64,000 nt of DNA from assembly GCA_963674695.2 (NCBI GenBank), contig CAXXGI010000001.1:544001-608000 (forward strand), read 5' to 3'. Source of the DNA: a bacterium (GTDB taxonomy: Bacteria; UBA10199; 2-02-FULL-44-16; JAAZCA01). Below, one piece after another: positions 4,902-57,510 of the stretch (within the stretch, counting starts at the first letter, position 1; each line of letters opens with the position of its first letter). A program made the position numbers and the translations under genes. The notes beneath the pieces were generated by a model. It was not told the DNA's origin and did not search any database. It saw only the letters and a list, made by a program, of their open reading frames with translations.

Positions 4902-6173
4902 ATGACGACCTTCGCGATAACCCCAGGAACCTCAGCGTCCGCGTTCATGGCGTTTGACTCCAACCTGGGATCTGCCGATGGCAGCTCAAGCGAGGTGGGA
5001 AATGTCGGGTCCGTACCGATGGAGACCGACGCCTTCGATGACGCCCCCATCCTGGCCGAAGCGCAACCGATCAAACTCGTCGCCCTGGGGGACGTGCATA
5101 AGAAGTGGGGCCCGGTCCAACAGATTCTCGACCATGAATTTCCTGAAGGCAACGGCGTCGCCCTCAGCGTGGGGGATCTCATCTCCTATCCGCCGTTGGA
5201 GAACGGCCATCGCATCCTCTTCACGCATGGCAATCACGAAAACTTCGGGGCACTCGAAACACTCCACGAGGATTCACGCGGGCAGTATCAACCGATCTTT
5301 GCAGGACAGTCCCTCGCAATCGGCGGACTGACGCTCGCCGGCATTCCGGGCATCTTTTTGCAGCGCTTCTACGATAACCCCGATCTTACATCCCTCAAGT
5401 ATTTCACTCGATCACAGGTCGAGACGATGAGGGCGATGGAGCGCTCGGTCGACATCCTGCTCATGCATGACGCGCCGTCGAGAGTGGGGTTTCAAAAAAA
5501 TGGCACCGCCCGGGGCGACCCGTTACTCACGGGCATCATCGAATATCTGCGCCCGCGCCTGGTCCTGTTTGGCCATCATCATCAATCATTTCAGGGACAG
5601 CTGGGAGAGACGCGCATCGTGGGCCTTGATTACCCACACCGATCCTACGGCGTCATCGAGTTCGATCCCAAAACGGAATTACTCCGGATGACGCGACACA
5701 ACGCCAAACTCGAGAAGGGCCCCGGCAAAATGCTGGTGTTTCATTATGCCTGGCAATCTGATAAGAACGTTGGTGGATCAGAGGTTCTCTTCAAGGGGAG
5801 GATTGCCGTGGGACGTGAACAGGAGTTACAGGAACAGCTCATCACCGCACATCGCGATCGCATCATTGCGGACCTCAAAGGACGGATTCAATCCGGCCTC
5901 ACAACGACCGACGCGGACACACTCGCCCAGCGACGCGCGACGCTTGCCGTCAACAGCGCACTCCCCTTCGCCGCACGCTATGCGGCAGCGATCGAGAAAA
6001 ATCCAAATATGTCGAAGGAAGAAAAAGAAGATCTGCTCAAAGAAATATATTGCCGCATGTGCACAACGCCCTTTCCCGAAGCCTCGGACGAGACGCTGCT
6101 GGCTTTTCAGGAAGCTCTCAAGGCGCTGGGGATGGTGCAAAACATTGCGGATAGACCATCTCAGCTGACATGA
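4902..6173 (+). CDS. Calcineurin-like metallophosphoesterase with acidic N-terminal leader and helical C-terminal extension
   Basis: GDVH, VGDL, GNHE, MHD, GHHH metal-binding motifs; start chosen at MTTFAITPG. Confidence 0.8.
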   Translation: MTTFAITPGTSASAFMAFDSNLGSADGSSSEVGNVGSVPMETDAFDDAPILAEAQPIKLVALGDVHKKWGPVQQILDHEFPEGNGVALSVGDLISYPPLENGHRILFTHGNHENFGALETLHEDSRGQYQPIFAGQSLAIGGLTLAGIPGIFLQRFYDNPDLTSLKYFTRSQVETMRAMERSVDILLMHDAPSRVGFQKNGTARGDPLLTGIIEYLRPRLVLFGHHHQSFQGQLGETRIVGLDYPHRSYGVIEFDPKTELLRMTRHNAKLEKGPGKMLVFHYAWQSDKNVGGSEVLFKGRIAVGREQELQEQLITAHRDRIIADLKGRIQSGLTTTDADTLAQRRATLAVNSALPFAARYAAAIEKNPNMSKEEKEDLLKEIYCRMCTTPFPEASDETLLAFQEALKALGMVQNIADRPSQLT

Positions 6174-8547
6174 GCAGACGCTCACCCGCATCCGGAAAGA
6201 ATGGACTCTCCGGTGTCATCACGGAAAATTGTACGTTGCGATCCCATCCCGATTCCCGCATCCGAGCACGCGTGTGATTGAACGCATCGCGCATGCGCTG
6301 ATCGCAATTGAATTCATCCAGCCTACTCTGTTTATTCACCACACGATCGAACTTCTTATATTGTTTGGTGACACCAATACTTCCGTCGGGCAGCTGCCGC
6401 TGCCACCACTCCAATCCCTGCATCTCCGCGCCACTGTTAGCTGACTGCCATGATCGAATCGATTCGATCGTTCGCGCCACAAAGCCATCAAACCGATCTG
6501 GTGTGACGACCACGGCGATATCGATGTCGCTGGCCTTTGCCGCCCTTCCCTCGATCCCCAGGTGAGAAACCCAGCGAAAGGGAATATCCGTCCCGGACTT
6601 AAACCCCGTCACGGAACTACCCTGGACGTAAACGGCAACGCCGGACTCATAGAGCGGCACGCCAGCTGCATGAAGCTCCGCCATCGCAACGCATTGAAAC
6701 TCCTGATACTGCGCAATCGATTCAAACCCGAGGGGCAACTCCGTTCCGTACCCCAGAAACTGTTGCATCCCCTTCACGCCGATGAGGGATTGCAACTCCT
6801 CTCCCGTCCAACGCTGTGCACCGATAAGGTGATCGATGAGATCGGACTGCTCCTGCACCGAAAGTCCATTCAGCTCGCGCGCACCGAGCCAACCTTCTAC
6901 CTGGGAACGCCGCTCGACGGTGAGCTCGCCCAGACGAAAGGCACCTGTCTGTTCGGGATTGGAGAGATTGATTGGTCGCGCAGAGCCCATCGCCCTCGTC
7001 TCGATGACATCATCAGCGAGCTTTGGAGGAGGAAGATTCTTTTCGAGAACGGCACTCGAGGCCCGCCGTGATTCAACACGCGTGATCCAGTCCGGAATGG
7101 CGATGAACCCGCGCTCATCGGCGAGCGCCGTCTTGAGATACGTCACAAACTCCGACCGACTCATCGCGCCGATACGATCGACACCGAGGCGCACAACACG
7201 CATGCCACCGCCGGCGGCACCGCGCACGGTCGCATAGGCCGCGCGGCCCACCAGATCCAGGCCAGACAGATGCCACGCGCCGATCGCCGTTTGACGACCG
7301 AGGTGCGCCGTGGTCGAAAACGCCACGCGCGCTCGTGAAGCACCGCTGCGCGAGAGTGCTCGCATCATGCTATACGTGGAGCTCACCGCCTCGTTTGCAC
7401 GCAGTGCAAGTACCGGCGCCTCCAACGCGCAGACCGCGAGCGCCGTATACATGATGAGCTGCGCGGTCTCCTCTGAGCGATCCTGGGCGACGCTCCATTC
7501 AGCGTTATTCAATGCATCGGGCTCGTCGGGCAGTTCATCCGTCGCCCAGCGATAACAATAGACCGCTCCATCCTTCATGAGCACGAAGGGATCGGTAAAG
7601 AAACGCACCACCCCTTTTCCGGCAACATAGTTTTGATCCGAAATGCTCGCATGTCCTAAACCTGTCTTCCAGGTCTTCTTGTGCAACTCCTTCGCCAACC
7701 TCACAACCCCTTCATGAACGGCAGGGGAATCAACATCGATCTTTGCCCCCAATATTTTTTCATCCAAACCCGTGCGAAAGGCGAAGCGCTTGAATCGCAT
7801 CACGGCATCGACGAGCACCCCCTCCAACGCGGCGACGCGATCCTCTTTTTTTTCAGGGACACAGATCTCAATGTGCCCGTTTGCATTCCAGGCCTCGAAC
7901 ATCCCGATAGATTTAGGGTCGAGAATCGGCGTGACGATTTCAGGGTTATGCTCCAACGGCAGGGCAATCTGCGTCAGCATGTGCCCGAGTTCAAAGAGAT
8001 CACGGCGACGCGCAGGACCGGGCTCGATGCGATCTTCAGCATAATCCCAGACGCTTCCTGTCTGTTCGAGATGGGAGCGCACCTCATCGTCATCCATTTC
8101 GAAAATCGCTTCCGCCCTGAGCAGTTGATGTTCGAACCATTCCTGCAGTTCTGGTACCACCGCGCTTGTTGTAAAATGCTCGATCGCAACCGCCAACGCT
8201 TCGCGGGCACGCACACTCTCTTCGCCACACGCGATGAACCGAAACAGGTTATCGAGTGCGTCTCCCAATGCATCATAGCGGCGGGCAAACGTCGGCGAGA
8301 GATCATAGCCAACCGCCTCCGGTATTTCCGAATCGGAAATGGAAATGGAATCAGGAGACCAGATGACGTGATCGGCATGCGATGCGGAGCACGAAAAAGC
8401 ATCTGGGGTTGATAGCTCGAAGCCATCTCCGGGATCGATCGCTTCATAGGCGAGCGATTCGGCTTCGATCTCGGGCGCAAGGGGAGCGACGACTGAACCG
8501 GCATCAGTCGCATCCTTTTTGATCAGATTGTCGCCGCCGGAATGCAT
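6118..8547 (-). CDS. Large orphan protein with C-terminal pol-beta-like nucleotidyltransferase domain (effector/toxin-like)
   Basis: About 809 aa; QGSSVTG...SDIDIAVV (GS...DxD) near the C-terminus; acidic leader; hydrophobic segment and LADERGFIAIP before the catalytic region. Confidence 0.65.
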   Translation of the reverse strand: MHSGGDNLIKKDATDAGSVVAPLAPEIEAESLAYEAIDPGDGFELSTPDAFSCSASHADHVIWSPDSISISDSEIPEAVGYDLSPTFARRYDALGDALDNLFRFIACGEESVRAREALAVAIEHFTTSAVVPELQEWFEHQLLRAEAIFEMDDDEVRSHLEQTGSVWDYAEDRIEPGPARRRDLFELGHMLTQIALPLEHNPEIVTPILDPKSIGMFEAWNANGHIEICVPEKKEDRVAALEGVLVDAVMRFKRFAFRTGLDEKILGAKIDVDSPAVHEGVVRLAKELHKKTWKTGLGHASISDQNYVAGKGVVRFFTDPFVLMKDGAVYCYRWATDELPDEPDALNNAEWSVAQDRSEETAQLIMYTALAVCALEAPVLALRANEAVSSTYSMMRALSRSGASRARVAFSTTAHLGRQTAIGAWHLSGLDLVGRAAYATVRGAAGGGMRVVRLGVDRIGAMSRSEFVTYLKTALADERGFIAIPDWITRVESRRASSAVLEKNLPPPKLADDVIETRAMGSARPINLSNPEQTGAFRLGELTVERRSQVEGWLGARELNGLSVQEQSDLIDHLIGAQRWTGEELQSLIGVKGMQQFLGYGTELPLGFESIAQYQEFQCVAMAELHAAGVPLYESGVAVYVQGSSVTGFKSGTDIPFRWVSHLGIEGRAAKASDIDIAVVVTPDRFDGFVARTIESIRSWQSANSGAEMQGLEWWQRQLPDGSIGVTKQYKKFDRVVNKQSRLDEFNCDQRMRDAFNHTRARMRESGWDRNVQFSVMTPESPFFPDAGERLLMSAEMVYPQCFAPSPAP

Positions 8548-8618
8548 GAAACCCCCCAAATGAGGTGCACAGGAGGCGCGGATGAGGATTCACACACGCC
8601 CCTGCCGTTACCTCTTTA

Positions 8619-8648
8619 TTATCGGCAGGTTGGGGGGAGAGAGTTGCG
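8619..8648 (-). promoter_or_regulatory. Recurrent promoter-like motif, copy B
   Basis: Minus strand CGCAACT-N15-GCCGATAA upstream of ATG 8547. Confidence 0.6.
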
Positions 8649-8705
8649 TGGGAGGACAAGAAAATGCGTACGACGATTATCACGTAACCATAGGGAATAA
8701 TATAA

Positions 8706-9587
8706 CTATTTCTTCTTTTGGATGAGACCCAGCAACGTGCGGAGATTCTTGGAGTCGTGGGCAGTCGGATTCTCGGCCTTGGGGGTCTCCAGGATCATGG
8801 GGAGGGGGGCGAGCGCGGGGTCGTTCATGAGGAGGCGAAAACCGGAAAGACCGATTTTTCCCTCGCCGATGTGCGCGTGGCGATCGCGATGCAAACCCAG
8901 ATCGAACATCGAGTCGTTCAGATGCAGGGCGGCGAGTTTCTTCATGCCGACGGTGGAACGAAACTGTCGCCAGGTTTCATTCCATCCCTTCTTCGTGCGC
9001 AGCTCATAGCCGGCCGCGAAGACGTGTGCGGTGTCGAGGCAGACGACGACGCGTGAGGAGTCGGCGACCCCGTCGATGATGGCGGCGAGCTCCTCGAAGC
9101 GGCTGCCGATCGAGGTGCCCTGACCGGCGGTGGTCTCCAGGGCGATCTTTGTGGAGAGGGCCTTCGTCTCGTCGAGGATGCGGTCGATCGAATCGATGAT
9201 GCGCGCGATCCCCCAGTCGAGGCCGCGATCCTTGTGCGCGCCGGGGTGGACGACGACGAAGGGGAGCGAGAGCATCGCGGCGCGCTCGATCTCTTCGCGC
9301 ATGCCGCGGAGCGAGCGCGCATAGGTCGTGCGGTCGGGGGCAGCGAGATTGATGAGATAGCTGGCATGCGCGATGGCAACGCGGATACCACCCGCCTTCA
9401 TCTCCTGCGCGAAGGCCTCGGCGTCGTCGTCGGAGATCGGGCGCGTGCGCCACTGCTGGTTGCTGGAGGTAAAGAGTTGAATCGCGGTGCAGCCGAGTTC
9501 CGCACCCGTCTTCGGTGCGTTTGCCACGCCGCCGGCGATGGAACAGTGCACGCCGATGAGGCGCCCCTTGTAGCGATCTTTTTTCAT
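8706..9587 (-). CDS. nfo: Endonuclease IV (AP endonuclease)
   Basis: GVHCSIAGG, HASYLINL, HPG, LETTAGQG, CLDTAHVFAAGY, HLNDS, DRHAHIGEG, ILETP. Confidence 0.95.
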   Translation of the reverse strand: MKKDRYKGRLIGVHCSIAGGVANAPKTGAELGCTAIQLFTSSNQQWRTRPISDDDAEAFAQEMKAGGIRVAIAHASYLINLAAPDRTTYARSLRGMREEIERAAMLSLPFVVVHPGAHKDRGLDWGIARIIDSIDRILDETKALSTKIALETTAGQGTSIGSRFEELAAIIDGVADSSRVVVCLDTAHVFAAGYELRTKKGWNETWRQFRSTVGMKKLAALHLNDSMFDLGLHRDRHAHIGEGKIGLSGFRLLMNDPALAPLPMILETPKAENPTAHDSKNLRTLLGLIQKKK

Positions 9588-9671
9588 GGGCGTTCGATGA
9601 CATCGCCCGCACAAAAACGCAAGGCGATCTCTCCAATATGGGCGCATCTCTAAACCGCATCTTACGAAGCC

Positions 9672-9747
9672 TGTCATTCTGAGTGTAAACGAAGAATCCC
9701 GATGAGCCGCGTCACATCGGGATCCTTCGCTGACACTCAGGATGACA
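9672..9747. repeat. REP-like palindrome pair, type B
   Basis: TGTCATTCTGAGTGTAAACGAAGAATC ... GATCCTTCGCTGACACTCAGGATGACA. Confidence 0.75.
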
Positions 9748-9778
9748 CATCCTGGAAATCACGTTTTTCGATATGCGA

Positions 9779-10543
9779 TCAATCGAAGTGCGGCGCGACG
9801 CCATCGGGCATCGACTGGGAGCTGGAGTCAATCGTGGAGGGCTCCTCCGTGGCAGCTGGATTTCCGACTTCGATCGAGGAACCCTCCCCCTCGTCGAGCG
9901 AGATAAGCGTGAAGGAGATCGCCCCATCGCTGACGGTATAGCCCATCACCGCCACATCGCCATCCTTGTCGAACTCGATCTGTCCGGGTTCGAGGATGCG
10001 CCACCCACCGCGCGTGATCACATCGCCCCCCTCGTCGACGAAGAAACCGGAGGGGAGGAAGGTGATGTAGGGCGAAGAGGCGGTGACGGTCATCAGCTCT
10101 TCGCTTTCGGCCGCCGGCAACGAGCCTTCATCGGCACTTTCTGAACTCGGCACCGCATCCCAGCTATCCATCACATCGTCCTGCGCATTGACCTGTTTGC
10201 CCTTGCGCTGTGCCGCGACGGGATCATCACCCTCATCCGGCGCGACCGTGCCGCCGACGGTTTCCTCTACGGGATCATCATCTCCGTGCTGCGGCCGTTC
10301 ATAGTCCGGAACCGGCTGGATGCGCCCCTCGTAGGACTCGGACATCTCGACGACCGTGTCGGCATCGACATTCTCGCCCACCCCGACCTCGCGCGCGCTC
10401 AGGTTAAACCCGCTCATGGCAGCGATGCGATAGCGACCGCCCTCGATGAGCTTCGTCTCATCCTCGCTCATGCCGCCCTTTTCACAGGCGGTGAAGATGA
10501 AGGCGATCGTTGCGATCAGGATGACGATTGCGTTGCGTTTCAT
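9779..10543 (-). CDS. Acidic lipoprotein (paralog of 12334-13035)
   Basis: Lipobox FTAC after signal peptide; GGAGG RBS; shared blocks with the 12334-13035 protein. Confidence 0.75.
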   Translation of the reverse strand: MKRNAIVILIATIAFIFTACEKGGMSEDETKLIEGGRYRIAAMSGFNLSAREVGVGENVDADTVVEMSESYEGRIQPVPDYERPQHGDDDPVEETVGGTVAPDEGDDPVAAQRKGKQVNAQDDVMDSWDAVPSSESADEGSLPAAESEELMTVTASSPYITFLPSGFFVDEGGDVITRGGWRILEPGQIEFDKDGDVAVMGYTVSDGAISFTLISLDEGEGSSIEVGNPAATEEPSTIDSSSQSMPDGVAPHFD

Positions 10544-10597
10544 TTGGTACCTCCATGATTTCGTCTCTTTTTACATCCGACACCACACCGTATTACT

Positions 10598-10613
10598 CTC
10601 AATGATCGTGCCA
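10598..10613 (-). promoter_or_regulatory. Possible sigma54 promoter (variant -12)
   Basis: Minus strand TGGCACGATCATTGAG; -24 perfect, -12 TTGA instead of TTGC. Confidence 0.35.
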
Positions 10614-10662
10614 ACACGCCGATTATGTATCTCGTCTGTCTGGAAAAGACGATTTTTACCGA

Positions 10663-10768
10663 TTGTTGTCATTCCCGCGAAGGCCGGAATCCCGAAGTAC
10701 TTGAAAAATCGAGATTTTCGCCGGAGTTTACCCTCGAGTGATTTAATCGGGGGCGGGAATGACAACAA
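10663..10768. repeat. REP-like palindrome pair, type A (GTCATTCCCGC...GCGGGAATGAC) with loop insert
   Basis: GTCATTCCCGCGAAGGCCGGAATC ... GGCGGGAATGAC; family repeated about 9 times in the window. Confidence 0.8.
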
Positions 10769-10846
10769 AACCCTATTCGACAGGCTCTATTTGTTCAATA
10801 AACGGGGCAAAGATTCCACTCATTCTGAGAATCTCACCTTCAGCCG

Positions 10847-11425
10847 TCATCCGTTTGACGCCCCTGCCAACTCCTCATCGGTAAAAAGCAGCGATTCGAC
10901 GATGGAGATAAAGTCGTCCATGATCGCCTGACCCTGGGCCTCGGTCGTGGCGACGATCTCGATGCGCAGGATCGCGATCTGCGTCCCGTCGGTGGCGTAA
11001 TAGAAGAAGGGATAGGCGCCGTTTGCCTCCGGCGTCTGTTGCGAAACGCCCGCGCCCTCCATCCCCTCCTCGGAAAAAAATTCGACGACATCGTCGGCAT
11101 GGCGCGCGTTGACATAGTCGGTGAAACTCGTGCCCGCTGGCAGCGTGTCGATGAGCGCCACGAAGTTGGAATCATCCTTCGTAAAATACGCGACGATCTT
11201 CGCGCTGCCGAGCGGATCGGTATAGACCTCCGGCCCCGGCGTCCCCTCCACCGTATAGTCCACATACGTCCAGCCCGGCGGAAGGGTGAGCTGTACGCCA
11301 TCCTCCTTGTCGATGTAGACCGAGCTCTCGTCGATCGGGTTGGTCACCTCGGTCCCGCGCTGCGTACAGGCCGACAGAGAAAGAATGATGACGAATACGC
11401 CGATGATGATGCGTTTCAATTCCAT
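10847..11425 (-). CDS. Lipoprotein with GTEVTNP motif, coupled to the TIGR02147 gene
   Basis: Lipobox LSAC then TQRGTEVTNP; start overlaps the end of 11416-12258. Confidence 0.75.
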   Translation of the reverse strand: MELKRIIIGVFVIILSLSACTQRGTEVTNPIDESSVYIDKEDGVQLTLPPGWTYVDYTVEGTPGPEVYTDPLGSAKIVAYFTKDDSNFVALIDTLPAGTSFTDYVNARHADDVVEFFSEEGMEGAGVSQQTPEANGAYPFFYYATDGTQIAILRIEIVATTEAQGQAIMDDFISIVESLLFTDEELAGASNG

Positions 11426-12258
11426 TGGGCCTCCGAGAGCGGAAAGAGCTGAAAGTTCATCTGACAGACGACGTCTTTGCGTTCGGCCTTCGACGCCAGG
11501 TCGTGGATCTCGTGACGACAGCGTTCGATCGCCGCGCGCATCTTCTCGAACGTGGCGCGATCGATGCCGACGGTGAGTGCGGAGAGATCGCGGTCGGCGG
11601 CGCGACTCCCATCGATCGACTCGATCGCCTTGGCAAACATCTGTCGATAGAAGGCGTTGACCGCCACCGAAAAGAGGCGCGGCTCGCAGACGATATCGGC
11701 CTCGGTTTGCGTCAGGCGACCATTCGTATCGCGCGCGAGAAGCCCCAGGTCGATAAGCAGCGCGATGGCGCGATCGACGGCCACAGCAGAGAGCTTTGTG
11801 CCGAGCTGCGCGTTGATCCAGACGGCATTCTCTTCAAACTCGGAAAGTCCCACGAGTTCGCGGATGGCCACGTGATACCACTTGGCCAGATACTCGTAGC
11901 GCTCGGCCTCGACCGCCTTCACCTGCGTGCGATGGCGCAGGCGCGAAATGATCGCCATCTGCGCCGCGCGCTCTTGGCCCGTCTTGGCCTGTTCAAACCC
12001 GACAAGCGCCGTGAAGTATTCGCGTTCGAGCCTATTGAGTTTGAGCGCCCCTAACAGTTTTTCCTGTGCGCGCCTTCCCAGATTGCGTTTGCCGTCCATG
12101 ACGAGTTTTAAAAAGTTGGGGGAAGCAAACCCACAGGTGCGCACGAAGACGCGGTGCGAAAATCCTTTCTGCGTGTTTTTTTTCAGTTCGTAGAGATCGC
12201 GCAGATAGATGCGATAGCTCGTATACTCGAAAAGGTTGATATCGATTGCGGGCATCAT
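11416..12258 (-). CDS. TIGR02147 / DUF4423 family protein
   Basis: LFEYTSYRIYLRDLY, FSHR..GFASPNFLKLVMDGKRNL (HTH-like), WYHVAIREL, RDLSALT, QMNFQLFPL. Confidence 0.9.
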   Translation of the reverse strand: MMPAIDINLFEYTSYRIYLRDLYELKKNTQKGFSHRVFVRTCGFASPNFLKLVMDGKRNLGRRAQEKLLGALKLNRLEREYFTALVGFEQAKTGQERAAQMAIISRLRHRTQVKAVEAERYEYLAKWYHVAIRELVGLSEFEENAVWINAQLGTKLSAVAVDRAIALLIDLGLLARDTNGRLTQTEADIVCEPRLFSVAVNAFYRQMFAKAIESIDGSRAADRDLSALTVGIDRATFEKMRAAIERCRHEIHDLASKAERKDVVCQMNFQLFPLSEAQWN

Positions 12259-12333
12259 GCATCCCCCATGCAGGCCCGCCCACCCCGCGTTTGCGGCGGG
12301 GTGAACGGGGGCTGCGTCTCCATTATACTGTAC

Positions 12334-13035
12334 TCACAGCATATCCGCGCCTGAAAAAACGGTCTCCGAGCCCTCGATGTAGGTGAGCGCAATCTCGCTG
12401 CCGTCGAGCGTATAGGCGAAGGTGAACTCGTAGCGCTCCAGCGTGATTTCGAGAACGCCCTCGCTCGTAACGCTCCACTCCGTGCCTGTGACCGTCTCGC
12501 CCGCATCCCGGTCGCGGCCGAACTCATAGCCCTGCTCGCCGAACTGGATGGTGAGCGGGATCGCATCCTCGGAGGAAACCGCATCGCTTCCGGTCTGGTG
12601 TGAAACCTCGGCGCAATCCACCGGTTCATCATGTACGTCCCGGTCACAGCGGCAGTCGCAATGACAGCAGCAACCGCGCTCAACTCCCTCGGCCGACGGC
12701 GTCGGATCCAACGCCTGATCCTCGTCCGTCGGCATCGCCTCCGGAATGTCAGTGCCGACCACGTCGCCGTCGTTTTCGGGCAAAACGTCGTCATCATATA
12801 AGCGCTGTGCCGAAACGCTGTTGCTGCTCGCGGAATCTTCGAAATGCAGGCCGCTCGCGTCGATCGAAAATCCGTTCGTCTCGACGATGGTCAGCCGCCC
12901 CGCGTCGATGAGCGCCTGTTCGGCATCGATGAGACCGGATGGAGTGCCGCCTCCCATGCCACAGCCCATGAGCCCGAGCCCTGCGATAACTGTTGCCGCC
13001 ATCCCGACCATCCGTTTCGTCCATATCCTTTTCAT
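12334..13035 (-). CDS. Acidic lipoprotein with internal Cys cluster (paralog of 9779-10543)
   Basis: Start MKRIWTKR after GGAGG; lipobox LMGC; GCCCHCDCRCD insert. Confidence 0.75.
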   Translation of the reverse strand: MKRIWTKRMVGMAATVIAGLGLMGCGMGGGTPSGLIDAEQALIDAGRLTIVETNGFSIDASGLHFEDSASSNSVSAQRLYDDDVLPENDGDVVGTDIPEAMPTDEDQALDPTPSAEGVERGCCCHCDCRCDRDVHDEPVDCAEVSHQTGSDAVSSEDAIPLTIQFGEQGYEFGRDRDAGETVTGTEWSVTSEGVLEITLERYEFTFAYTLDGSEIALTYIEGSETVFSGADML

Positions 13036-13084
13036 GACCGCCTCCTGGTGTTGGTGAAGATATTCCCCCCGATTCACACCTGGA

Positions 13085-13113
13085 TTATCGGCCGTCGTCC
13101 AGCGCGAGTTGCG
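13085..13113 (-). promoter_or_regulatory. Recurrent promoter-like motif, copy C
   Basis: Minus strand CGCAACT-N14-GCCGATAA upstream of ATG 13035. Confidence 0.6.
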
Positions 13114-13129
13114 CCCAAAAAGAACAATA

Positions 13130-13244
13130 TGTATTCATTTTTGAATACAAGATTTGAGATGAATACATAATAACACATATAAAATCATATTGTTATAACA
13201 ACTTCGCCTTAATTAATAAAAATAACAGCCTGAATATGAATACA
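13130..13244. promoter_or_regulatory. Candidate operator: TGTATTCA-N4-TGAATACA palindrome plus extra TGAATACA half-sites
   Basis: Palindrome 13130-13149, half-sites at 13160-13167 and 13237-13244 in an AT-rich region. Confidence 0.5.
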
Positions 13245-13312
13245 GCCACCGCTGGTCAAGTCCGGCTCAATCGTTTGACAACTCCCATCCGAAAATGACG
13301 ATTTCTCCGATT

Positions 13313-13413
13313 TTTGTCATTCCCGCTCCCGATTCAATCATTCGAGGGCAGGCTCCAGCGGGAATCTCGAAGTACTTGAAAAATCGAGATTCCCGCCTCC
13401 GCGGGAATGACAA
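13313..13413. repeat. REP-like palindrome pair, type A with loop insert
   Basis: GTCATTCCCGC-[TCCCGATTCAATCATTCGAGGGCAGGCTCCA]-GCGGGAATC ... GATTCCCGCCTCCGCGGGAATGAC. Confidence 0.8.
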
Positions 13414-13636
13414 CCTTCGGTTTTCGGGAATGACAACCTTCGGGTTCGGGAATGACAACCTTCGGGTTCGGGAATGACAACCTTCGGGTTCGGGAATGAC
13501 AACCTTCGGGTTCGGGAATGACAACCTTCGGGTTCGGGAATGACAACCTTCGGGTTCGGGAATGACAACCTTCGGGTTCGGGAATGACAACCTTCGGGTT
13601 CGGGAATGACAACCTTCGGGTTTCGGGAATGACAAC
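13403..13636. repeat. Tandem array of a 22-bp unit GGGAATGACAACCTTCGGGTTC
   Basis: 11 copies of GGGAATGACAAC separated by near-identical CTTCGGGTTC; begins at the right end of the REP. Confidence 0.95.
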
Positions 13637-13728
13637 ATGAGCCGCCTCCCGGACAGGAACGAGATAACGCCGGGGCATCGATGCGATTCACTCGACAAAC
13701 CGAGCAGTTTTCGCGATGACCCTCTTCC

Positions 13729-22886: not shown

Positions 22887-23444
22887 TTACGTTTTCATCC
22901 GCAAATCGATGTCCACGATCTGGTCGGCAAATTCGATGCCCGCCTCATAGACGCGTTCGAAGACGGTGGGATGGAACATGCGCACCCAGCGTACGGTTCC
23001 GTGCAGGGCGCAGGCCGCGAGATTGGGCGGCGCGATGACGAGGTGCCGACCCTGTTCGATCGGTTCATGCGACTGAAAACGTATCCCCAACGTGGAGACA
23101 TCCTTCACCCGAGCCGTGTGCCATTGCGAATCGTGATCAAAGCAATAGGAGATCGTCGCCGCGATATCATGACGAGGCACGCGGCGGCGCTCCGGTCCGG
23201 AGGCAACCGCAGGCACCTGTTTGTGCTGATCGAGTTTGACCAACAGGTCATAGCGCGCACGACGCGACGCATCCGAGAGCGTCTCATAGGCCAGATTGAT
23301 TTCGGCCGCCTCGTCGGTGTCGCCCCCCCGGTCGGGATGCTTGCCCATGGTCGACATGAGCGTCCGGTAGGCCGCAGTGATCATCTCCGGCTCAGCATCG
23401 GCGGAGATTTGAAGGATGTCATAGTAGGTGCGTGTTTTGTCCAT
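22887..23444 (-). CDS. DnaJ (J-domain) + PilZ domain protein
   Basis: YYDILQI, HPD, INLAYETLSD..RARYD; RRRVPR (RxxxR) and DVSTLG (DxSxxG). Confidence 0.88.
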   Translation of the reverse strand: MDKTRTYYDILQISADAEPEMITAAYRTLMSTMGKHPDRGGDTDEAAEINLAYETLSDASRRARYDLLVKLDQHKQVPAVASGPERRRVPRHDIAATISYCFDHDSQWHTARVKDVSTLGIRFQSHEPIEQGRHLVIAPPNLAACALHGTVRWVRMFHPTVFERVYEAGIEFADQIVDIDLRMKT

Positions 23445-23453: not shown

Positions 23454-23481
23454 TTATCGCATCTTCTTCAAAAAGGTTGCG
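23454..23481 (-). promoter_or_regulatory. Recurrent promoter-like motif, copy D
   Basis: Minus strand CGCAACC-N13-TGCGATAA, ending about 10 nt before ATG 23444. Confidence 0.5.
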
Positions 23482-44640: not shown

Positions 44641-44656
44641 TGTGCACGTTGGCATA

Positions 44657-48288: not shown

Positions 48289-48360
48289 ACCATCCCAAAG
48301 AAAACTCGTGTAAGGGGCGCCTGCGAAGAAAGCGCTCCAGGGTGATGACAAACCTTGGTT

Positions 48361-48461
48361 TTGTCATCCCCGCCCCCGATTCAACCATTCGAGGGCAGGC
48401 TCCAGCGGGGATCTCGATGTACCGTATAAAGCGAGATTCCCGCTTTCGCGGGAATGACAAC
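48361..48461. repeat. REP-like palindrome pair, type A with loop insert
   Basis: GTCATCCCCGC-[CCCCGATTCAACCATTCGAGGGCAGGCTCCA]-GCGGGGATC ... GATTCCCGCTTTCGCGGGAATGAC. Confidence 0.8.
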
Positions 48462-48515
48462 ATGAAATGACTTAATCAGCAGTCTGAGAGCGCCGACGCA
48501 TGCGGCGCTCCTTTT

Positions 48516-49739: not shown

Positions 49740-50521
49740 AGTTCCTTCAACTCTTGCTGCAGACTCTGTGCGATGTGAGCAATATTCGCCTCCGTCGCCA
49801 CGAGCGGCTCACTCCCCTGACGCATCGGTGGCGTAAAGATGCGGTCGACCCAGGTGGGCGAACCCTCGAGACCAAGGCGCTGGAGATCGCAACCAATATC
49901 CACCGCACTCCAAACGGGAATATTCGAACGCTTCGCCCGCACCTTCCCCATAAACGAGGTATAGCGCGGTGTGCTGATCTCTTTGACGACCGAGAGCAGG
50001 CACGGCAGCGGCAGGCGCACGATATCGTGGCCGCATTCCGTCATGCGCTCCACGACGACGTGTCGCGGGCCCACCTCCTGCACGCGACGGACGAAGGCGG
50101 CCTGCGGCAGGAGCAGATGCACCGCGATCCCCGGACCCACTTGCGCGGTATCGCCGTCGGAGGCCTGCTTGCCCGTCAGGATCAGATCGAAGGCACCGTG
50201 ATGGATGATTGCCCGAGCCAATGCATAGCTGGTCGCAAGCGTGTCGCTGCCGGCAAAGGCACGATCAGAGATGAGCACCGCATCGTCCGCCCCCATGGCG
50301 ATCGCCTCTTCGAGCGCCACCCGCGCCTGCGGTGGACCCATGGTGAGGACCGTCACGCGCCCCCCGTGCGCTTCGCGCAGGCGCAGCCCCTCTTCGATGG
50401 CATAGAGATCGAACGGATTGATGATCGAGCGCACCCCATCGCGCACGAGCGTGTTCGTCTGCGGATTGATCTTCACATCCGTCGTATCGGGAACCTGTTT
50501 GATGCAGACAATGATATCCAT
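49724..50521 (-). CDS. etfB: Electron transfer flavoprotein beta subunit
   Basis: VCIKQVPD, NPFD, GSDTLAT, DGDTAQVGP, GSPTWV. Confidence 0.95.
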   Translation of the reverse strand: MDIIVCIKQVPDTTDVKINPQTNTLVRDGVRSIINPFDLYAIEEGLRLREAHGGRVTVLTMGPPQARVALEEAIAMGADDAVLISDRAFAGSDTLATSYALARAIIHHGAFDLILTGKQASDGDTAQVGPGIAVHLLLPQAAFVRRVQEVGPRHVVVERMTECGHDIVRLPLPCLLSVVKEISTPRYTSFMGKVRAKRSNIPVWSAVDIGCDLQRLGLEGSPTWVDRIFTPPMRQGSEPLVATEANIAHIAQSLQQELKELWASK

Positions 50522-50644
50522 AAAAATTAAAAAGGAAAAATATGAAATGAAAAACACAGACCAAAAATAAAAGATAAAGTCGTAAAATTTTTCATTTTTG
50601 ATTTGTGTATTTCATTTTTCATTTCCTATTTTTCATTTTGAAAT
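50522..50644. repeat. AT-rich imperfect inverted repeat between ETF-QO and etfB
   Basis: A-rich arm AAAAAGGAAAAATATGAAATGAAAAACACAGACCAAAAAT vs T-rich arm ATTTTTGATTTGTGTATTTCATTTTTCATTTCCTATTTTTC. Confidence 0.55.
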
Positions 50645-52290
50645 CACATTCCCTTGTAATTCGGTCCGCCGCCGCCCTCGGGGGGAACCCAGGTGACGAT
50701 CTTGTACGGATCCTTGATATCGCACGTCTTGCAGTGCACGCAGTTGGACGGGTTCAGGTGGAGGCGTGTGACGCCATCGGCCTCCTCGACCATTTCGAAG
50801 ACGCCCGCGGGACAGAAGAACTGACACGGATTGCCGTACTCCTGCTTGCAACGCCCGTTACAGATGGAGGTGTCATCGACCAGGATGTGACAGGGCTGGT
50901 CCTCCTCGTGTTTCGTACCGGAAGCAAAGACACAGGTCGTGCGATCGAAAGTCACCTTGTCATCCGGAACGAAGGGCGGCTCTTTGTGTGCCTTCACCTG
51001 GCTGAGCTCTTTCGTGCAGTCCGCATCCGAAGGCACCGGAATGCGATCGTGCAATCCCCGACCGCCGGTGAGGATACCCAGACTCGCATTGATCATCCCG
51101 CCGATGAGCCCCCCGTGAAATCCCTGGTGAAAATTGCGCGCAAGCTTGAGTCCCTTCGCCATCCAACTTCCCCGCACGCGTTCATCATAGACCGAGAGTT
51201 TTGCTGCCGAACAGTCATCCACACGCAACGCATCGATCGCCGTCTCGGCAGCCAGCATCCCCGACTTCATCGCCAAATCGATCCCCTTGAGCTTCATGGC
51301 GTTCAAAAACCCGGCGCTCTCGCCGATGATGAGGAATCCATCGCCATAGGTTCGCGGAATGCAGTAGAACCCCCCCTCCGCGATCGTGCGCGCGCCATAG
51401 GAGAGCATGCGGCCGCTCTCGAAAAGCGGTCGAATCGCCGGGTGCGCCTTCCAGCGCTGAAAGAGCTCGTAGGGATAGGTGCGCGGATCCTTCCAATCGA
51501 GCGAGACCACGAGCCCCGCCGCCACATGCCGATCGCGCAGATGATAGATGAAACTCCCGCCAAAGGTCTTCGCGTCCAGCGGATGGCCCATCGTGTTGAC
51601 GATGGTCCCCTCCCGGAAATGCTTCGGGTCCACCTCCCAGAGTTCCTTGATTCCCACCGCATACCCCTGAGGCAGGCAGTGTTCATCGAGCCCCTGTGAT
51701 TCGACGAGGCGCCGCGTCAAGTGTCCGCGCGCGCCCTCGCCCAGCACGACAATGCGCGCGCCGATATCGGTCGGGGGCAGGTAGTTCGACTTCTGCTTAC
51801 CCTCCTTATCGCACCCCTTCCCCTTGATGCGCACACCGATCACGGCCCCGCGTTCATCCTGGATAAGTTCATCGACCGCCTCACCGGAAAAGATCTCGAC
51901 CCCTTCGGCCTCGCAATGGCCGCCCAGCCATCGCACGAACTCCGCCAGCGAGATAATATACTTGCCGTGGTTGGACATCGGCGGCGGAACGAGGGGTGCG
52001 GGGATGTGATGATTGCGCGTCAGATACCAGAGGCGCTCACGGCTCACCTTCGTGCCGAAGGGGATGTCGCGACTGCGCCAATCGGGCATCAGTTCGGCCA
52101 GCGCTCGCGGGTCAAGCGCCGCGCCCGAGAGCGAATGATCACCCAGATTTGGCGCCTTCTCGATGACGGCCACCGTCATGCCGGAGAGCTTCGGATCTGT
52201 CTTGGCCAGACGTTTGAGATGCAGCGCACCGGCGAGCGATGCCGGCCCGCCGCCGACAAAGATGACATCGAAGGAAAGTTCAAAGGACAT
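50644..52290 (-). CDS. etfdh: Electron transfer flavoprotein-quinone oxidoreductase
   Basis: GGGPA, SGA, GIKELW, KGIDLAMKSG, EEDQPCH, CPAGV, NCVHCKTCDIKDP, PEGGGGP. Confidence 0.93.
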   Translation of the reverse strand: MSFELSFDVIFVGGGPASLAGALHLKRLAKTDPKLSGMTVAVIEKAPNLGDHSLSGAALDPRALAELMPDWRSRDIPFGTKVSRERLWYLTRNHHIPAPLVPPPMSNHGKYIISLAEFVRWLGGHCEAEGVEIFSGEAVDELIQDERGAVIGVRIKGKGCDKEGKQKSNYLPPTDIGARIVVLGEGARGHLTRRLVESQGLDEHCLPQGYAVGIKELWEVDPKHFREGTIVNTMGHPLDAKTFGGSFIYHLRDRHVAAGLVVSLDWKDPRTYPYELFQRWKAHPAIRPLFESGRMLSYGARTIAEGGFYCIPRTYGDGFLIIGESAGFLNAMKLKGIDLAMKSGMLAAETAIDALRVDDCSAAKLSVYDERVRGSWMAKGLKLARNFHQGFHGGLIGGMINASLGILTGGRGLHDRIPVPSDADCTKELSQVKAHKEPPFVPDDKVTFDRTTCVFASGTKHEEDQPCHILVDDTSICNGRCKQEYGNPCQFFCPAGVFEMVEEADGVTRLHLNPSNCVHCKTCDIKDPYKIVTWVPPEGGGGPNYKGM

Positions 52291-52440
52291 GCCCCATCCC
52301 CCCTGGAATTCTTAAGCCGCAGCAGCATAGATGGTCGAAAGCCTTCGGTCAAGAAGAGCCCCACTAGGAACCGACATCAAAATCTGCTAGAATGCGGGCA
52401 CCTCAAAAAACTCAATTTTTGATGTCGCCTCCCGGGGAAA

Positions 52441-53430
52441 ATGGAGACCTACATGGACCGCTACCCCAAACCGCAGCTGGTCGTCAGCAAATGCCTCGGA
52501 TTTGCTGACTGTCGTTGGAACGGCATCGCGATTTCCTCAACCGTCGTCGAAAAGCTTGAGCCCTTCGTCACGTTTCATCCGGTCTGCCCGGAAATGGAAA
52601 TCGGTTTGGGTGTACCGCGAAAGCCGATTCGCATCGTACTCAAAAAGGAGCGACGCCTTCTGTTGCAATCGATAAACGAGATGGATGTCACCGAACGCAT
52701 GGAGCGTTTCTGCTCGCAGTTTCTCGACGGCCTCACGGGAAAACCTCTCGACGGCTTCATCCTCAAAGGACGCAGCCCCTCCTGCGGCATCAAGGACGTC
52801 AAACTCTACCCCCGCCTGGGCAAAGTCGCCGCGCTCTCGGGAAAGGCAAAGGGGTTCTTCGGCAGCGCGGTCCTGAAACGCTTTCCGCTGCTGGCCGTCG
52901 AGGATGAGGGGCGGCTGACGAGCTTCCAGATCCGCGAACATTTTCTGACCCAAGTCTTCGCGCTCGCGAGGCTGCGCGAATTTCTCGAACACCCCACGCC
53001 GGCAGGGCTGGTGGAGTTTCAGGCACGTCACAAACTCCTGCTCATGGGATATAACCAATCGAAGATGCGCGAGTTGGGGCGCATCGTTGCCAACCACGAA
53101 CAGCATCCCTTCGATCGCGTCTGTTCGGCTTTTGCCGATGGATTCCGTCTGGCCATCTCCAAGGCGCCGCGCACGAGATCAAACGTGAACGTCCTGATGC
53201 ACGCGCTCGGTCACTTCTCGGAAGGACTCGGAGCCCCCGAGAAAGCGCACTTCCTCGGTGAACTCGAAAGGTTTCGCGCGGGGCATACACCGCTTTCGGT
53301 CCCGATCGGCATTATCCGTTCCTTCATCGCCCGCTTCGGCAACGATTACCTCGCCAAACAATACTATTTCGATCCCTATCCCGAATCACTCGTCGAAATC
53401 ACCGATTCCGGAAAAGGACGCAGCTGGTAG
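52441..53430 (+). CDS. ybgA: DUF523 + DUF1722 (YbgA family) protein
   Basis: VSKCLG, VCPEMEIGLGVPR, SPSCG, EDEGRL, HKLLL, NVLMHALG, PYP. Confidence 0.9.
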   Translation: METYMDRYPKPQLVVSKCLGFADCRWNGIAISSTVVEKLEPFVTFHPVCPEMEIGLGVPRKPIRIVLKKERRLLLQSINEMDVTERMERFCSQFLDGLTGKPLDGFILKGRSPSCGIKDVKLYPRLGKVAALSGKAKGFFGSAVLKRFPLLAVEDEGRLTSFQIREHFLTQVFALARLREFLEHPTPAGLVEFQARHKLLLMGYNQSKMRELGRIVANHEQHPFDRVCSAFADGFRLAISKAPRTRSNVNVLMHALGHFSEGLGAPEKAHFLGELERFRAGHTPLSVPIGIIRSFIARFGNDYLAKQYYFDPYPESLVEITDSGKGRSW

Positions 53431-53438
53431 GTTTTTTC

Positions 53439-54803
<1,365 letters not shown>

Positions 54804-54887
54804 ATCGAACATTGACGCGATGGGGTGATATGATATGCAAAATCATCGATCTCACACCATGTATCCCCACCCGAACGGAGTTTTGCG

Positions 54888-55898
54888 ATGCCACATTCAA
54901 AAAAGGCCATTCTTTCGCCCTCCTCCGAAGGAGAATCGATCGATGCGATCCCCGTCGGGGAGTTCGGCGGCATCGAGCCGACCGAAAAGGATATGGGGCT
55001 GGTCCAGTTCACGCTCGATAAGGGCGTGCGCACGACGGTGGTAGGCACGGTCTATGGCCTCGACTTCGAAATCGAAAATGAGGGCTATCGCGTCCGTATC
55101 TTCTTCGACTACTACAATAAGCGTTTGAAGGTCCTCGACTACGATGCCGAGAACTACTCCGCACTCGTCACGCGACTGTCCTGGCTGGCCGAACACAACC
55201 AGTTCGACAAAATCTTCTTGAAGGCCCACGAATCCGACTTTCAGCAGTTTCTCTCGCACGGATATCTGATGGAGGGAATCCTGCGCTACTACTTCCAGGG
55301 AAAGGACGCCTATATCCTCTCGCGCTTCTCCTCGGAAGCGCGCGTCACCAGCGATCACGTCATCGAAGAGGCACAGATGATCGAGGAGCTGATGTGCCAC
55401 ACCGAACACATCGAGCGCCGCCCGCTCGATCCAACGATCACGATCCGGCGTGCAACCCCCGAAGACATTCCACAGCTCATCCTCATCTATCGCAGCGTCT
55501 TTGACACCTATCCGTCGCCGCTGACAAACCCCGACTACATCAAGTCGACGATGGAGCGAAACGTCATCTATCGCATCGCTTTTGAGAATGAGCAGGCGAT
55601 CGCTGCCGCCAGCGCCGAGATCACCGATCGCCATTCCAACGCCGAGGTGACCGACTGCGCCACCACCCCCGAGGCACAGGGCAAGGGCATCATGCAGCAC
55701 TTGATCGCTGCACTCGAGGACGACTTGCGCGAACGCAAGATCAGGACGGCCTACACGTTGGCGCGCGCCTTGAGTATCGGCATGAACCGCTCGTTCTATC
55801 GTCTGGGGTATGAGTTCTGCGGAAGACTCATCAACAACTGCGACATCTTCGGCAAGTTCGAGGACATGAACATCTGGGTCAAGCGGCTGGCGCGATAG
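54888..55898 (+). CDS. ablB: Putative beta-lysine N-acetyltransferase (AblB-like GNAT)
   Basis: YYNKRLKV, F.TYPSP, AEVTDCAT, YTLARA, FEDMNIW. Confidence 0.8.
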   Translation: MPHSKKAILSPSSEGESIDAIPVGEFGGIEPTEKDMGLVQFTLDKGVRTTVVGTVYGLDFEIENEGYRVRIFFDYYNKRLKVLDYDAENYSALVTRLSWLAEHNQFDKIFLKAHESDFQQFLSHGYLMEGILRYYFQGKDAYILSRFSSEARVTSDHVIEEAQMIEELMCHTEHIERRPLDPTITIRRATPEDIPQLILIYRSVFDTYPSPLTNPDYIKSTMERNVIYRIAFENEQAIAAASAEITDRHSNAEVTDCATTPEAQGKGIMQHLIAALEDDLRERKIRTAYTLARALSIGMNRSFYRLGYEFCGRLINNCDIFGKFEDMNIWVKRLAR

Positions 55899-56126
55899 CG
55901 CTTCGCTCTCACTCATTGCCCTCACAAATTTCGTCATCAATTCCACTCAATCAGAATGCAATCGTGATTGTTTCAGCGAGGAGCGCGGCCTCCTCCCCGC
56001 CCACTTTGCACTGTCCGGTCAGGACGATGAGCTCGAATGATCTCATAATCGTCATCTCCGAACAGAGAAAAATATATCATTGAATATCATACAGTTATAA
56101 ACTACCCCTCCCATAACGAAAAAAAG

Positions 56127-56154
56127 CGCAACTTTTTTGCGCCTCATGCGATAA
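56127..56154 (+). promoter_or_regulatory. Recurrent promoter-like motif, copy F
   Basis: CGCAACT-N13-TGCGATAA upstream of ATG 56200; IHF-like TATCATACAGTTA further upstream. Confidence 0.6.
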
Positions 56155-56199
56155 CGAATGGGTTCGATTCATATCCGACAATAGACCTGGAGGAAAGCG

Positions 56200-57510
56200 A
56201 TGAATATGTTGGCACAGGGCGCAATGCCCTTCGTGGGCACCCCCTTTATCGATCCCGCAGGGAATGATTTGAATTTAATGTTCACCGCAGAGCCGGGCAC
56301 GGGAGCGACCGACGATCCGAGTGCAAACAACGATGCGTTTGCAATGGACGATCCGTATCCGACCCCACCGCCGAATGCCGAGCGGATGGCCGACTGGCGG
56401 TGGTGGAAACCATGGAATGTTGACGAGACGACCGAACGACAGATCGCGGATGTCTTTGAAGCCAACGCCCCGATCGAAGAGCGGCTCTGGGACGGCTTCC
56501 GGGTGTTGTCCCACCGCCGATATGCGGATGTCGTTCAGCGCAGCGGCGTCGAAAAAACGCTCGGTGCGATCGACGGCGCCCGCGACGACTTCACCTTTCT
56601 GGGCCATCCCATGATGAATGCAGAGGATCTCGCAGCAGCGAGCGAATCCTACTTCGCCCTCTTCCCTCCCTCCATCCGAGAGCAGGTCCCCGGCAGGACG
56701 ATCGCCGATTTCAACCGCGCCTTCAAACTTCATATCGCGGAGATGAAGGCAAGGAACGAGGCGGTCGATCCCCTCGCTATGTGGAAAACCATGAGGGAAT
56801 TCGACAAGATCCAGCGTTCGCAGCATCATAGCGGGCTCCTCTACAGCGATGGCACCATCTGGCTCGCCCCCCTCTTGCGCGATGTCCCCAACGGCATCGG
56901 CCTCATCAATGTCCTCACACATGAAGCCGCCGGCCACGACGCCGCCGCACGCGGCGCCAACGGCGCCATTGCATCCGCCCTCCTGTATCTCGGGAGCAAC
57001 ACCGCATTGAATATTGTACGCGCTCTCCTGGACCCCACGACCCCGCTGTCAAACCGCCTTCTGACCTATCTCGTCGAGGGCGAGGCGATCGGCGCCGAGT
57101 GGGAGTACATCCATCGCATTCCCGCCGACATGCGCACGCAACTCATGGAGGCGATCGCCGATTCGATGGAGGAGAAAGAACGCACGCTCCTCAACGAGAA
57201 GGGCTGGATCCCGCGCCGAGCGCTCGACGCCCTCGGCCTCGAGAAGGGAAGCGCCGAGCGCGTCCGTGCGCTCTACCGCGCCGGAGCCTACCAGCACCTG
57301 GCGCTCGCAGATCGAAAGAAGGGGGCCTATATCCGCCGCGTCCGAAAGATGGGCGGTTACTCTCCGCTTCGCATGCTCTGGGAACCGACGCGCCGCGACT
57401 GGTATGTCTCCTCGATGGAGGGGCTCACCAAGAGTTTTTGGCAGAAGCGCATCGGCTATGCCGCCAAGCTCTCGGCCTTTGCCTATCTCCTCTCGCAGGT
57501 CGTCGGATAA
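56200..57510 (+). CDS. Orphan protein with acidic leader and zincin-like HExxxH motif
   Basis: GGAGG RBS; VLTHEAAGH followed by EGEAIGAE; no signal peptide. Confidence 0.65.
   Translation: MNMLAQGAMPFVGTPFIDPAGNDLNLMFTAEPGTGATDDPSANNDAFAMDDPYPTPPPNAERMADWRWWKPWNVDETTERQIADVFEANAPIEERLWDGFRVLSHRRYADVVQRSGVEKTLGAIDGARDDFTFLGHPMMNAEDLAAASESYFALFPPSIREQVPGRTIADFNRAFKLHIAEMKARNEAVDPLAMWKTMREFDKIQRSQHHSGLLYSDGTIWLAPLLRDVPNGIGLINVLTHEAAGHDAAARGANGAIASALLYLGSNTALNIVRALLDPTTPLSNRLLTYLVEGEAIGAEWEYIHRIPADMRTQLMEAIADSMEEKERTLLNEKGWIPRRALDALGLEKGSAERVRALYRAGAYQHLALADRKKGAYIRRVRKMGGYSPLRMLWEPTRRDWYVSSMEGLTKSFWQKRIGYAAKLSAFAYLLSQVVG

Follow-up and report, generated by a model that had tools for sequence, protein, structure and literature searches.

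Three genes behind sigma-28-type promoters in a UBA10199 bacterium: probable membership of a phylum-wide regulon linked to a non-flagellar type III locus, and a shared D-A-F tripeptide read as coincidence

The stretch of DNA analysed here, called the window, spans 64,000 nucleotides of a bacterium of the UBA10199 lineage (contig CAXXGI010000001.1 of assembly GCA_963674695.2, positions 544,001 to 608,000) and was represented by a set of 52 proteins, among them the products of three genes, A, B and C, that lie behind related promoter motifs. An initial annotation had described these products as three unrelated enzymes (a metallophosphoesterase, a nucleotidyltransferase and a zincin-like protein) with an acidic leader ending in the tripeptide D-A-F, and had proposed that this leader targets a co-regulated set of effectors to a secretion apparatus. 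The features in question, in window coordinates, are the following.

4829..4854, + strand: promoter of gene A, CAACTTTTTCGCGTCTTCGCCGATGA (CAAC-N16-CGATGA, class I geometry with a 16-base spacer)
4902..6173, + strand: gene A, 423 amino acids, a real open reading frame; disordered leader of about 57 residues, calcineurin-like metallophosphoesterase domain at residues 58-240, and a C-terminal region with no assigned family
5028-5036: DAF of gene A, residues 43-45
8646-8619, - strand: promoter of gene B, CAACTCTCTCCCCCCAACCTGCCGATAA (CAAC-N18-CGATAA, class II with an 18-base C-rich spacer and GCCGATAAT)
8547..6118, - strand: gene B, 809 amino acids, a real open reading frame, with its leader at residues 1-40
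7063-8427: N-terminal module of gene B, about 455 amino acids (residues 41-495), common to a paralogue in the same genome
6517-6621: Pol-beta-like GS...DxD of the C-terminal domain of gene B (G643 S644, D674 D676)
8419-8427 and 8395-8403: DGF (residues 41-43) and DAF (residues 49-51) of gene B
56129..56154, + strand: promoter of gene C, CAACTTTTTTGCGCCTCATGCGATAA (CAAC-N16-CGATAA, class I with an upstream A-tract and a 16-base spacer)
56200..57510, + strand: gene C, 436 amino acids, a real open reading frame
56332-56340: DAF of gene C, residues 45-47

Counts for the whole genome refer to the genome of the window (G000), which comprises 3.03 megabases in 3 contigs with 58.5% G+C, is rated 100% complete, and yielded 2312 genes by crude gene calling. 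Each of A, B and C lies behind a related motif, as the initial annotation had it, gene A with the -10 variant CGATGA. The consensus of sigma-28 promoters is TAAA-N15-GCCGATAA, and a sigma-28-type (G)CCGATAA -10 element is present before A (as the variant), B and C as well as in the consensus of 92 sites; the -10 regions of the three genes read GCCGATGA (A), GCCGATAA (B) and TGCGATAA (C). Within the window, CAAC-N15-19-CGATRA is matched 8 times against 1.77 expected, a number reached in 0/100 shuffles, and five of these matches are intergenic and face a gene. Genome-wide, CAAC-N15-19-CGATAA has 123 sites, as against 20-29 in three shuffles; 102 of the 123 lie between genes, and the called start is a median of 38 bases away. 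The promoter is carried by 96 genes in its strict form (motif <=250 bases upstream), which are compared below with a background of 2216 genes, and by 174 genes in a relaxed form.

Two classes of promoter can be distinguished: (i) class I (n=50), with an A-tract, CGCAACTTTTT, a 16-base spacer, CGATAA and G-rich downstream bases; and (ii) class II (n=42), with ACGCAACTTTG, a C-rich spacer of 17-18 bases and GCCGATAAT. Genes A and C fall in class I and gene B in class II. A survey of 93 genomes of the phylum, all of one class and this genome included, found CGCAAC-N16-18-CGATAA in 93/93 at 2-87 copies, compared with 0-4 for a reversed control pattern; this genome has 73 copies against 1 for the reversed control. 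The promoter is retained among relatives of A, B and C, whose leader sequences differ. For A, a canonical CAAC-N16/17-CGATAA lies just upstream of the homologues in G009 and G090 (two of the four A-homologue loci examined); for B, CAAC-N18-CGATAA lies just upstream of family members in G062, G058 and G006 (3 loci); and for C, the homologue in G030 carries GCAACATTTTTCAAGCCTTGACGATAA some 120 bases upstream, the promoter being kept at this 1 locus.

An export apparatus, which the initial annotation had placed elsewhere in the genome, was sought, and a non-flagellar type III locus was found together with a Tad-like locus.

Contig 3, about 4-20 kilobases: non-flagellar type III locus with genes for a TPR chaperone, an SctJ-type lipoprotein, a 289-residue sigma factor, a FliG-like protein, SctL/FliH, an ATPase and FliN/SctQ

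The SctJ-type lipoprotein scores 129 bits with TIGR02544 vs 36 bits with FliF (NCBIfam), and FliP/Q/R-like genes were recognised in the locus by eye. The FHIPEP export gate is encoded by a single gene in this genome and occurs in 91/93 of the phylum's genomes; flagellin, rod and hook genes are absent from this genome, rated complete as stated. The genes of the locus run in the order orf102, orf180, TPR chaperone, SctJ, orf141, sigma factor, orf165, FliG-like, SctL and SctN onward, an order found in 18/19 related loci, which had been collected by a search with the sigma factor and of which the exception is a 40%-identical match in a metagenome-assembled genome of Myxococcota. Among relatives, 12/13 have a promoter with a 17-18-base spacer ahead of orf180 and 11/14 have one ahead of orf141, and none stands directly before the sigma gene (0/15), which follows orf141. 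In this genome, class II promoters precede both orf180 and orf141, so that gene B has the same promoter class as these two genes, and A and C have the other. The class II promoters would drive two small secretion-locus genes, and one of the two lies directly upstream of the sigma gene. The idea of a co-regulated set linked to type III machinery elsewhere in the genome stood in outline as far as the locus, its sigma-28-family factor and the conservation of B's promoter class there are concerned; it did not stand as to size, as the set comprises some 100-170 genes and is not a small group of effectors.

Several further observations concern the locus and its surroundings. The reading frame orf165 (G000:C3:9399-9896) begins where the sigma-28-like gene ends and is found in 17 related loci; its N-terminal half is variable, its C-terminal 65 residues are highly conserved, and it matches no Pfam or NCBIfam family. 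The FliG-like protein (G000:C3:9988-11052), which has FliG_M and FliG_C domains, is kept within the non-flagellar type III locus of relatives; we know of no FliG from injectisome loci. No member of the FlgM family was found in the genome. The Tad-like locus (G000:C2:687556-692402) contains a weak secretin match (60.5 bits) at C2:687556 and single-domain T2SSF genes at C2:690356 and C2:692031 (open frames of 263 and 295 amino acids), and contig 3 holds, in addition, one set of genes that resembles type II secretion and a separate one that resembles a type IV pilus.

A second sigma-like protein is encoded at G000:C3:147960-150692 behind a class I promoter. It has 910 amino acids, with an RpoD/RpoS-like sigma domain confined to residues 650-909 and an N-terminal extension of 650 residues, and its N-terminus contains DAF twice (MHAMDAF... 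and ...ETDAFV). This protein was considered as the reader of class I promoters and rejected: only 11/93 genomes, this one counted, have a match at E<=1e-30; its N-terminal part is reached by 6 matches in 5 other genomes; and sites with a 16-base spacer are present in genomes without a match, such as G017 and G015.

Two further promoters of the window stand before genes whose products have no DAF.

13085..13111, - strand: promoter with a 17-base spacer, ahead of a 225-amino-acid gene (12334..13011, - strand) with a lipoprotein-like N-terminus
23454..23479, - strand: class I promoter, ahead of the gene for a 185-amino-acid J-domain protein (22887..23444, - strand)

A similar protein of 180 amino acids in G017 is also encoded behind a class I promoter, and this member of the regulon therefore seems old. 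The Pfam scan of the regulon covered 86 of the 96 strict members (those of 70-1000 amino acids) and matched 54 families in all, several of them on the same protein. They include thrombospondin type 3 repeats (3 proteins), DUF4423 (2), serpin, LRR, HEAT, TPR, GAF and GGDEF, with further matches to S8 and S41 peptidases and, for the J-domain protein, to the DnaJ family; no flagellar family is among the 25 that were listed of the 54. Lipoboxes occur in 6/44 class II products vs 103/2138 in the background.

The proteins behind the promoter are acidic. A net charge of <=-5 within the first 60 residues is found in 43/96 motif-bearing proteins vs 353/2216 others (p=9e-11), and the charge per residue after residue 100 is -0.055 vs -0.013 (p=7e-9). 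The "acidic leader" that the initial annotation had assigned to A, B and C was rejected as a feature and dropped, because the proteins behind the motif are acidic from end to end and the charge of the N-terminal 60 residues does not differ significantly from that of the rest (p=0.15). Other N-terminal properties do set one class apart. When the 44 class I products that lack a Sec-type start are compared with 1523 background proteins, the share of lysine and arginine (K/R) at residues 2-25 is 0.091 vs 0.134 (p=8e-4), the first K/R stands at a median of residue 12 vs 6 (p=3e-6), and the S/T/P/N/Q/G content is higher (0.363 vs 0.306, p=1.5e-4); in class II products, none of the three differences is seen. 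A replication drew on 40 regions around listed promoter sites in G017 and G015, which belong to another family and have 43-44% G+C, and set 22 class I products against 68 neighbouring open reading frames. It gave a K/R share of 0.076 vs 0.126 (p=0.0013), an S/T/P/N/Q/G content of 0.384 vs 0.328 (p=0.012) and a whole-protein charge of -0.030 vs -0.004 (p=0.0012), with no difference in the position of the first K/R (p=0.63).

For A, B and C themselves, the N-terminal 40-60 residues are disordered and fast-evolving. The three proteins have, by eye, neither a Sec nor a lipoprotein N-terminus, and the positions of the tripeptide, counted on the translations, are as had been reported. A D-A-F or D-x-F leader as a targeting signal did not survive comparison, for lack of a convincing enrichment and of conservation in homologues. 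In the window, 24 tripeptides including DAF are common to at least 3 of the 52 proteins at residues 35-60 (LSD is found in 5), and a tripeptide shared to that degree is present in 216/216 contiguous 52-gene blocks of the genome. The proteome contains 315 DAF against 218 expected from composition, and 70 proteins have one within their first 80 residues. Behind the motif, D-x-F at residues 35-60 occurs in 10/96 vs 154/2216 proteins (p=0.14, seed genes counted). DAF at the same residues occurs in 4/96 motif genes vs 27/2216 others (p=0.037, seed genes included), and at residues 20-70 it reaches p=0.058 and lies outside the 20 best of 418 tripeptides tested. Class I N-termini show no enrichment of phenylalanine, and in G017 and G015 DAF is found in 1/35 vs 2/87. 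None of the 17 homologues of A has DAF ahead of its catalytic domain, none was seen in 13 homologues of C, and in the aligned stretch of the B paralogue DGF is kept and DAF lost. Judged by these comparisons, the D-A-F shared by A, B and C is a coincidence and not a signal; as a leader it would have been a new secretion signal, and as such it is ruled out. A cluster of genes for proteins of 453-621 amino acids at G000:C3:387005-401396 has N-termini that are rich in G/A/D/F and free of K/R, with GDAF in four; its members at G000:C3:387005 and 394548 have class I promoters.

The enzymatic labels of the three genes fared unequally. That of A was confirmed: the calcineurin-like domain matches PF00149 at E 1.9e-8 and 35.4 bits, above the Pfam cut-off of 21.5, and the translation contains the metal-binding motifs GDVH, GD, GNHE and GHHH, which make A an active-looking metallophosphoesterase. 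Its 17 homologues (35-53% identity) have leaders of 17-50 residues that are rich in G/A/P/S/T and nearly uncharged, or far longer N-terminal regions, and several begin MTITPITPG or MTTFLPP, compared with MTTFAITPG in A itself. The start of A at 4902 is favoured because these N-termini are alike and because the -10 element ends at 4854, past the alternative ATG at 4851. Gene A also matches the defence-candidate model PDC-S10 of PADLOC (E 5.6e-8).

Gene B is modular, with a nucleotidyltransferase-like C-terminal end. Its only match in a word-based (k-mer) search is the paralogue in the same genome (P0003, 936 amino acids), which is 45% identical across B residues 41-495 and ends instead in a PP2C domain (PF00481); distant relatives of the N-terminal module, of >900 amino acids, occur in G058 and G006. 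G-S ... D-x-D is the catalytic signature of Pol-beta-like nucleotidyltransferases, and GSS(V/M)xG ... SD(I/Y)DI is invariant in 3/3 aligned C-terminal domains. The nucleotidyltransferase label of B did not hold beyond this conserved signature; the matches to NTP_transf_2 (PF01909) remain under the cut-off of 21 (B, 13.0 bits and E 0.14; the relative in G009, 16.5 bits and E 0.011). For the C-terminal domain, a protein-atlas lead was weak (score 0.85), and an AlphaFold2 model from 3 sequences was unusable (predicted local distance difference test score, pLDDT, 41.5).

For gene C, the label "zincin-like" was withdrawn. The histidine spacing is HExxxH and not HExxH, and the second histidine lies outside the conserved columns of a 14-sequence alignment, in which H241, E242, E293, R306 and R312 are invariant and W301 and E302 nearly so. 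An AlphaFold2 model (pLDDT 80.9, predicted template modelling score 0.79) predicts that residues 1-61 are disordered and are followed by a mostly helical domain that ends in a hydrophobic C-terminal helix. With this model, Foldseek found nothing in the PDB at E<=0.001, and VIA-align wide gave a best Z of 6.4, to a designed cage protein; profile searches of PDB sequences (alignments A1 and A3) gave nothing below E 0.15, a Pfam scan gave no family, and a word-based search recovered C alone. Among 1.84 billion representatives, 13 distant homologues were found, with homology beginning at about residue 46-65 and leaders that range from none to about 150 residues, one of them basic and rich in arginine and serine.

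The three enzymes had been called unrelated, a description that does not suit A and B. Their 3' ends overlap convergently by 56 bases (window 6118-6173), and a homologue of A adjoins a protein with the C-terminal domain of B in two other genera, convergently as here in G009 (G009:C27) and divergently, head to head, in G062 (G062:C41). Because this adjacency recurs, A and B are probably functionally linked, and the arrangement suggests that they act on the same substrate or pathway.

Taken together, these findings favour a joint reading, which we consider probable, in which A, B and C are members of a large, phylum-wide regulon of sigma-28-type promoters that is linked to the non-flagellar type III locus, the D-A-F is coincidental, and part of the regulon may be exported. 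The sigma-28-family factor encoded in the locus would read the promoters of the regulon, and part of the regulon may leave the cell through the type III machine by way of a generic, charge-poor N-terminus; the promoter boxes that mark type III effectors in plant pathogens offer a parallel. Type III export of regulon members is plausible, and the composition of class I N-termini leads us to infer that class I products may use such an N-terminus. Gene B would be the best candidate cargo, since its promoter is of the same class as those of the type III locus genes.

A number of points weigh against this joint reading. The best NCBIfam models for the 289-residue sigma factor are all FliA/WhiG, and its score of 132.4 bits is under the cut-off of 189.6; its assignment to the promoter classes is one that we infer. 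The -35 element is (CG)CAAC(TT) and not TAAA, at a spacing (CAAC-N16-18-CGATAA) that is near canonical, and the CGATGA of gene A differs from CGATAA by one base. The paralogue of B lacks the regulon promoter, none of the three secretins in the genome lies near the type III locus, and the acidity is, as noted, not specific to the N-terminus. Nor is the regulon purely effector-like: its members also include a GGDEF protein, a sigma factor and matches to 4-alpha-glucanotransferase and alpha-amylase families, and Sec-type N-termini are present in 8/52 products of class I and 15/44 of class II, compared with 615/2138 in the background. Because Sec-type N-termini and ordinary enzymes are included, the regulon is broad and is not a pure list of effectors. 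Finally, all N-terminal statistics carry added noise, since genes and their start codons were called crudely. As to the glycogen and starch enzymes, which are unexpected in a secretion-linked regulon, G000:C1:363458-364933 has a 4-alpha-glucanotransferase-like start and a class I promoter.

A more far-reaching version of events, possible but in our view doubtful, is that a phylum without flagella has rewired the flagellar sigma-28 circuit onto a non-flagellar type III machine whose locus encodes the sigma factor, such that the promoter marks small exported components of the machine together with about 100 or more delivered, fast-evolving, acidic, domain-poor proteins per genome, A, B and C among them, and that the machine's activity might, as with FlgM, feed back on the sigma factor through a secreted inhibitor. 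Modular enzymes with a shared N-terminal module and differing catalytic ends, as in B and its paralogue, would also be members.

We regard it as unlikely that the promoters define a regulon of growth phase, development or stress whose products are cytoplasmic and envelope proteins, with the sigma gene in the type III locus by happenstance and A, B and C acting inside the producing cell. The metabolic and signalling enzymes and the many Sec-type N-termini would fit such a regulon, and the parts of one report that bear on WhiG of Streptomyces provide a precedent for a sigma-28-family factor in a non-flagellar programme (PMC12871210). Against it stand the position of the sigma gene within the type III locus, which 18 of 19 related loci share, and the conservation of class II promoters ahead of two genes there; moreover, class I N-termini are charge-poor and rich in S/T/P/N/Q/G in three genomes, and Pfam matches are few, with 54 families in all among 86 products.

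It is rather improbable that A and B are instead a self-contained nucleotide-acting pair, for example in defence or as toxin and antidote, in which the nucleotidyltransferase makes a signal or modifies a target, the phosphoesterase removes it, and the leaders are irrelevant. Their adjacency in G009 and G062 speaks for a pair, as do the match of A to PDC-S10 and that of the B-like protein of G009 to PDC-S09 (PADLOC, E 0.046); the PADLOC matches are, however, at the level of the general fold, and B itself has none. The two genes also carry regulon promoters of different classes, and the 455-residue module of B, which occurs with a PP2C end as well, looks like domain shuffling of delivered enzymes. 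A pair of this kind is compatible with export of both proteins and is therefore not exclusive of the joint reading.

Least credible is the earlier model of an acidic leader ending in D-A-F (or D-x-F) near residue 45 as a dedicated targeting signal of secreted effector enzymes, for which the presence of DAF at residues 43-51 of all three proteins, its nominal excess at residues 35-60 with the seeds counted, and DAF-like tripeptides in other promoter-borne N-termini (the 910-residue sigma-like protein and the paralogues at C3:387005-401396) are outweighed by 24 tripeptides that equal it in the window, the failure of D-x-F, DAF and phenylalanine to stand out, its loss among homologues, the result in two other genomes, and homologue leaders of which some are basic or uncharged.

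If the joint reading holds, candidate cargo of a type III machine and genes co-regulated with it can be listed from a simple DNA pattern, in a phylum known from metagenomes only, in which no effector is known and where sequence searches find almost no relatives of the regulon proteins. The pattern would then be a testable entry into what these small-genome bacteria do to prey or hosts, and the system an example of a sigma-28-family factor that serves a secretion machine instead of a flagellum.

The N-terminal signals of type III substrates are non-cleaved, poorly conserved, disordered and rich in small and polar residues, and they lie mostly in the first 20-30 residues without a fixed motif. 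Class I products appear to resemble such signals in being poor in K/R and rich in S/T/P/N/Q/G at residues 2-25, whereas a D-A-F at residue 45 is unlike them in both position and fixed motif. In the literature on GCCGATAA with type III secretion no such system was met, and among the papers listed on non-flagellar type III secretion with a sigma factor no report of a sigma-28 factor in such a locus was met, supplementary files lying outside the scope of the search. The arrangement shares with the flagellar FliA regulon, the sigma-28/FlgM late-gene system as treated in part of one paper (PMC12784957), the -10 element GCCGATAA, the overall spacing and a sigma gene embedded among type III export genes. 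In contrast to that regulon, it has no flagellin, rod or hook, its -35 is CAAC and not TAAA, no FlgM match is found, and its targets are domain-poor and lineage-specific and do not belong to the flagellum or chemotaxis.

In Myxococcus xanthus, according to passages of a study of that organism, a needle-less T3SS* and a Tad-like Kil apparatus act in contact-dependent killing of prey (PMC10849154). The likeness to the present case, which is drawn from gene content, lies in a non-flagellar locus without a secretin, in a deltaproteobacteria-like lineage, and in the co-occurrence of a Tad-like locus; the T3SS* passages name no substrates and describe no sigma-28-type regulon (PMC10849154).

The closest known arrangement is the HrpL/hrp box regulon of Pseudomonas syringae and Dickeya. 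As described in the portions of two papers on which this comparison draws, HrpL serves as an alternative sigma factor tied to type III genes that reads a conserved hrp box, and this box precedes genes of the apparatus, effectors and a variable group of non-effector genes and can be used to list effector candidates (PMC3879358, PMC2957411). The HrpL regulon is likewise broad and not a pure effector list, as far as the first of these portions goes (PMC3879358). HrpL is of the ECF (extracytoplasmic function) type and recognises a different box, whereas the factor described here matches FliA/WhiG best and the -10 element is the sigma-28 CCGATAA. In comparison with the HrpL regulon, the set described here, known from sequence alone, is larger (96-174 genes) and is conserved across the phylum.

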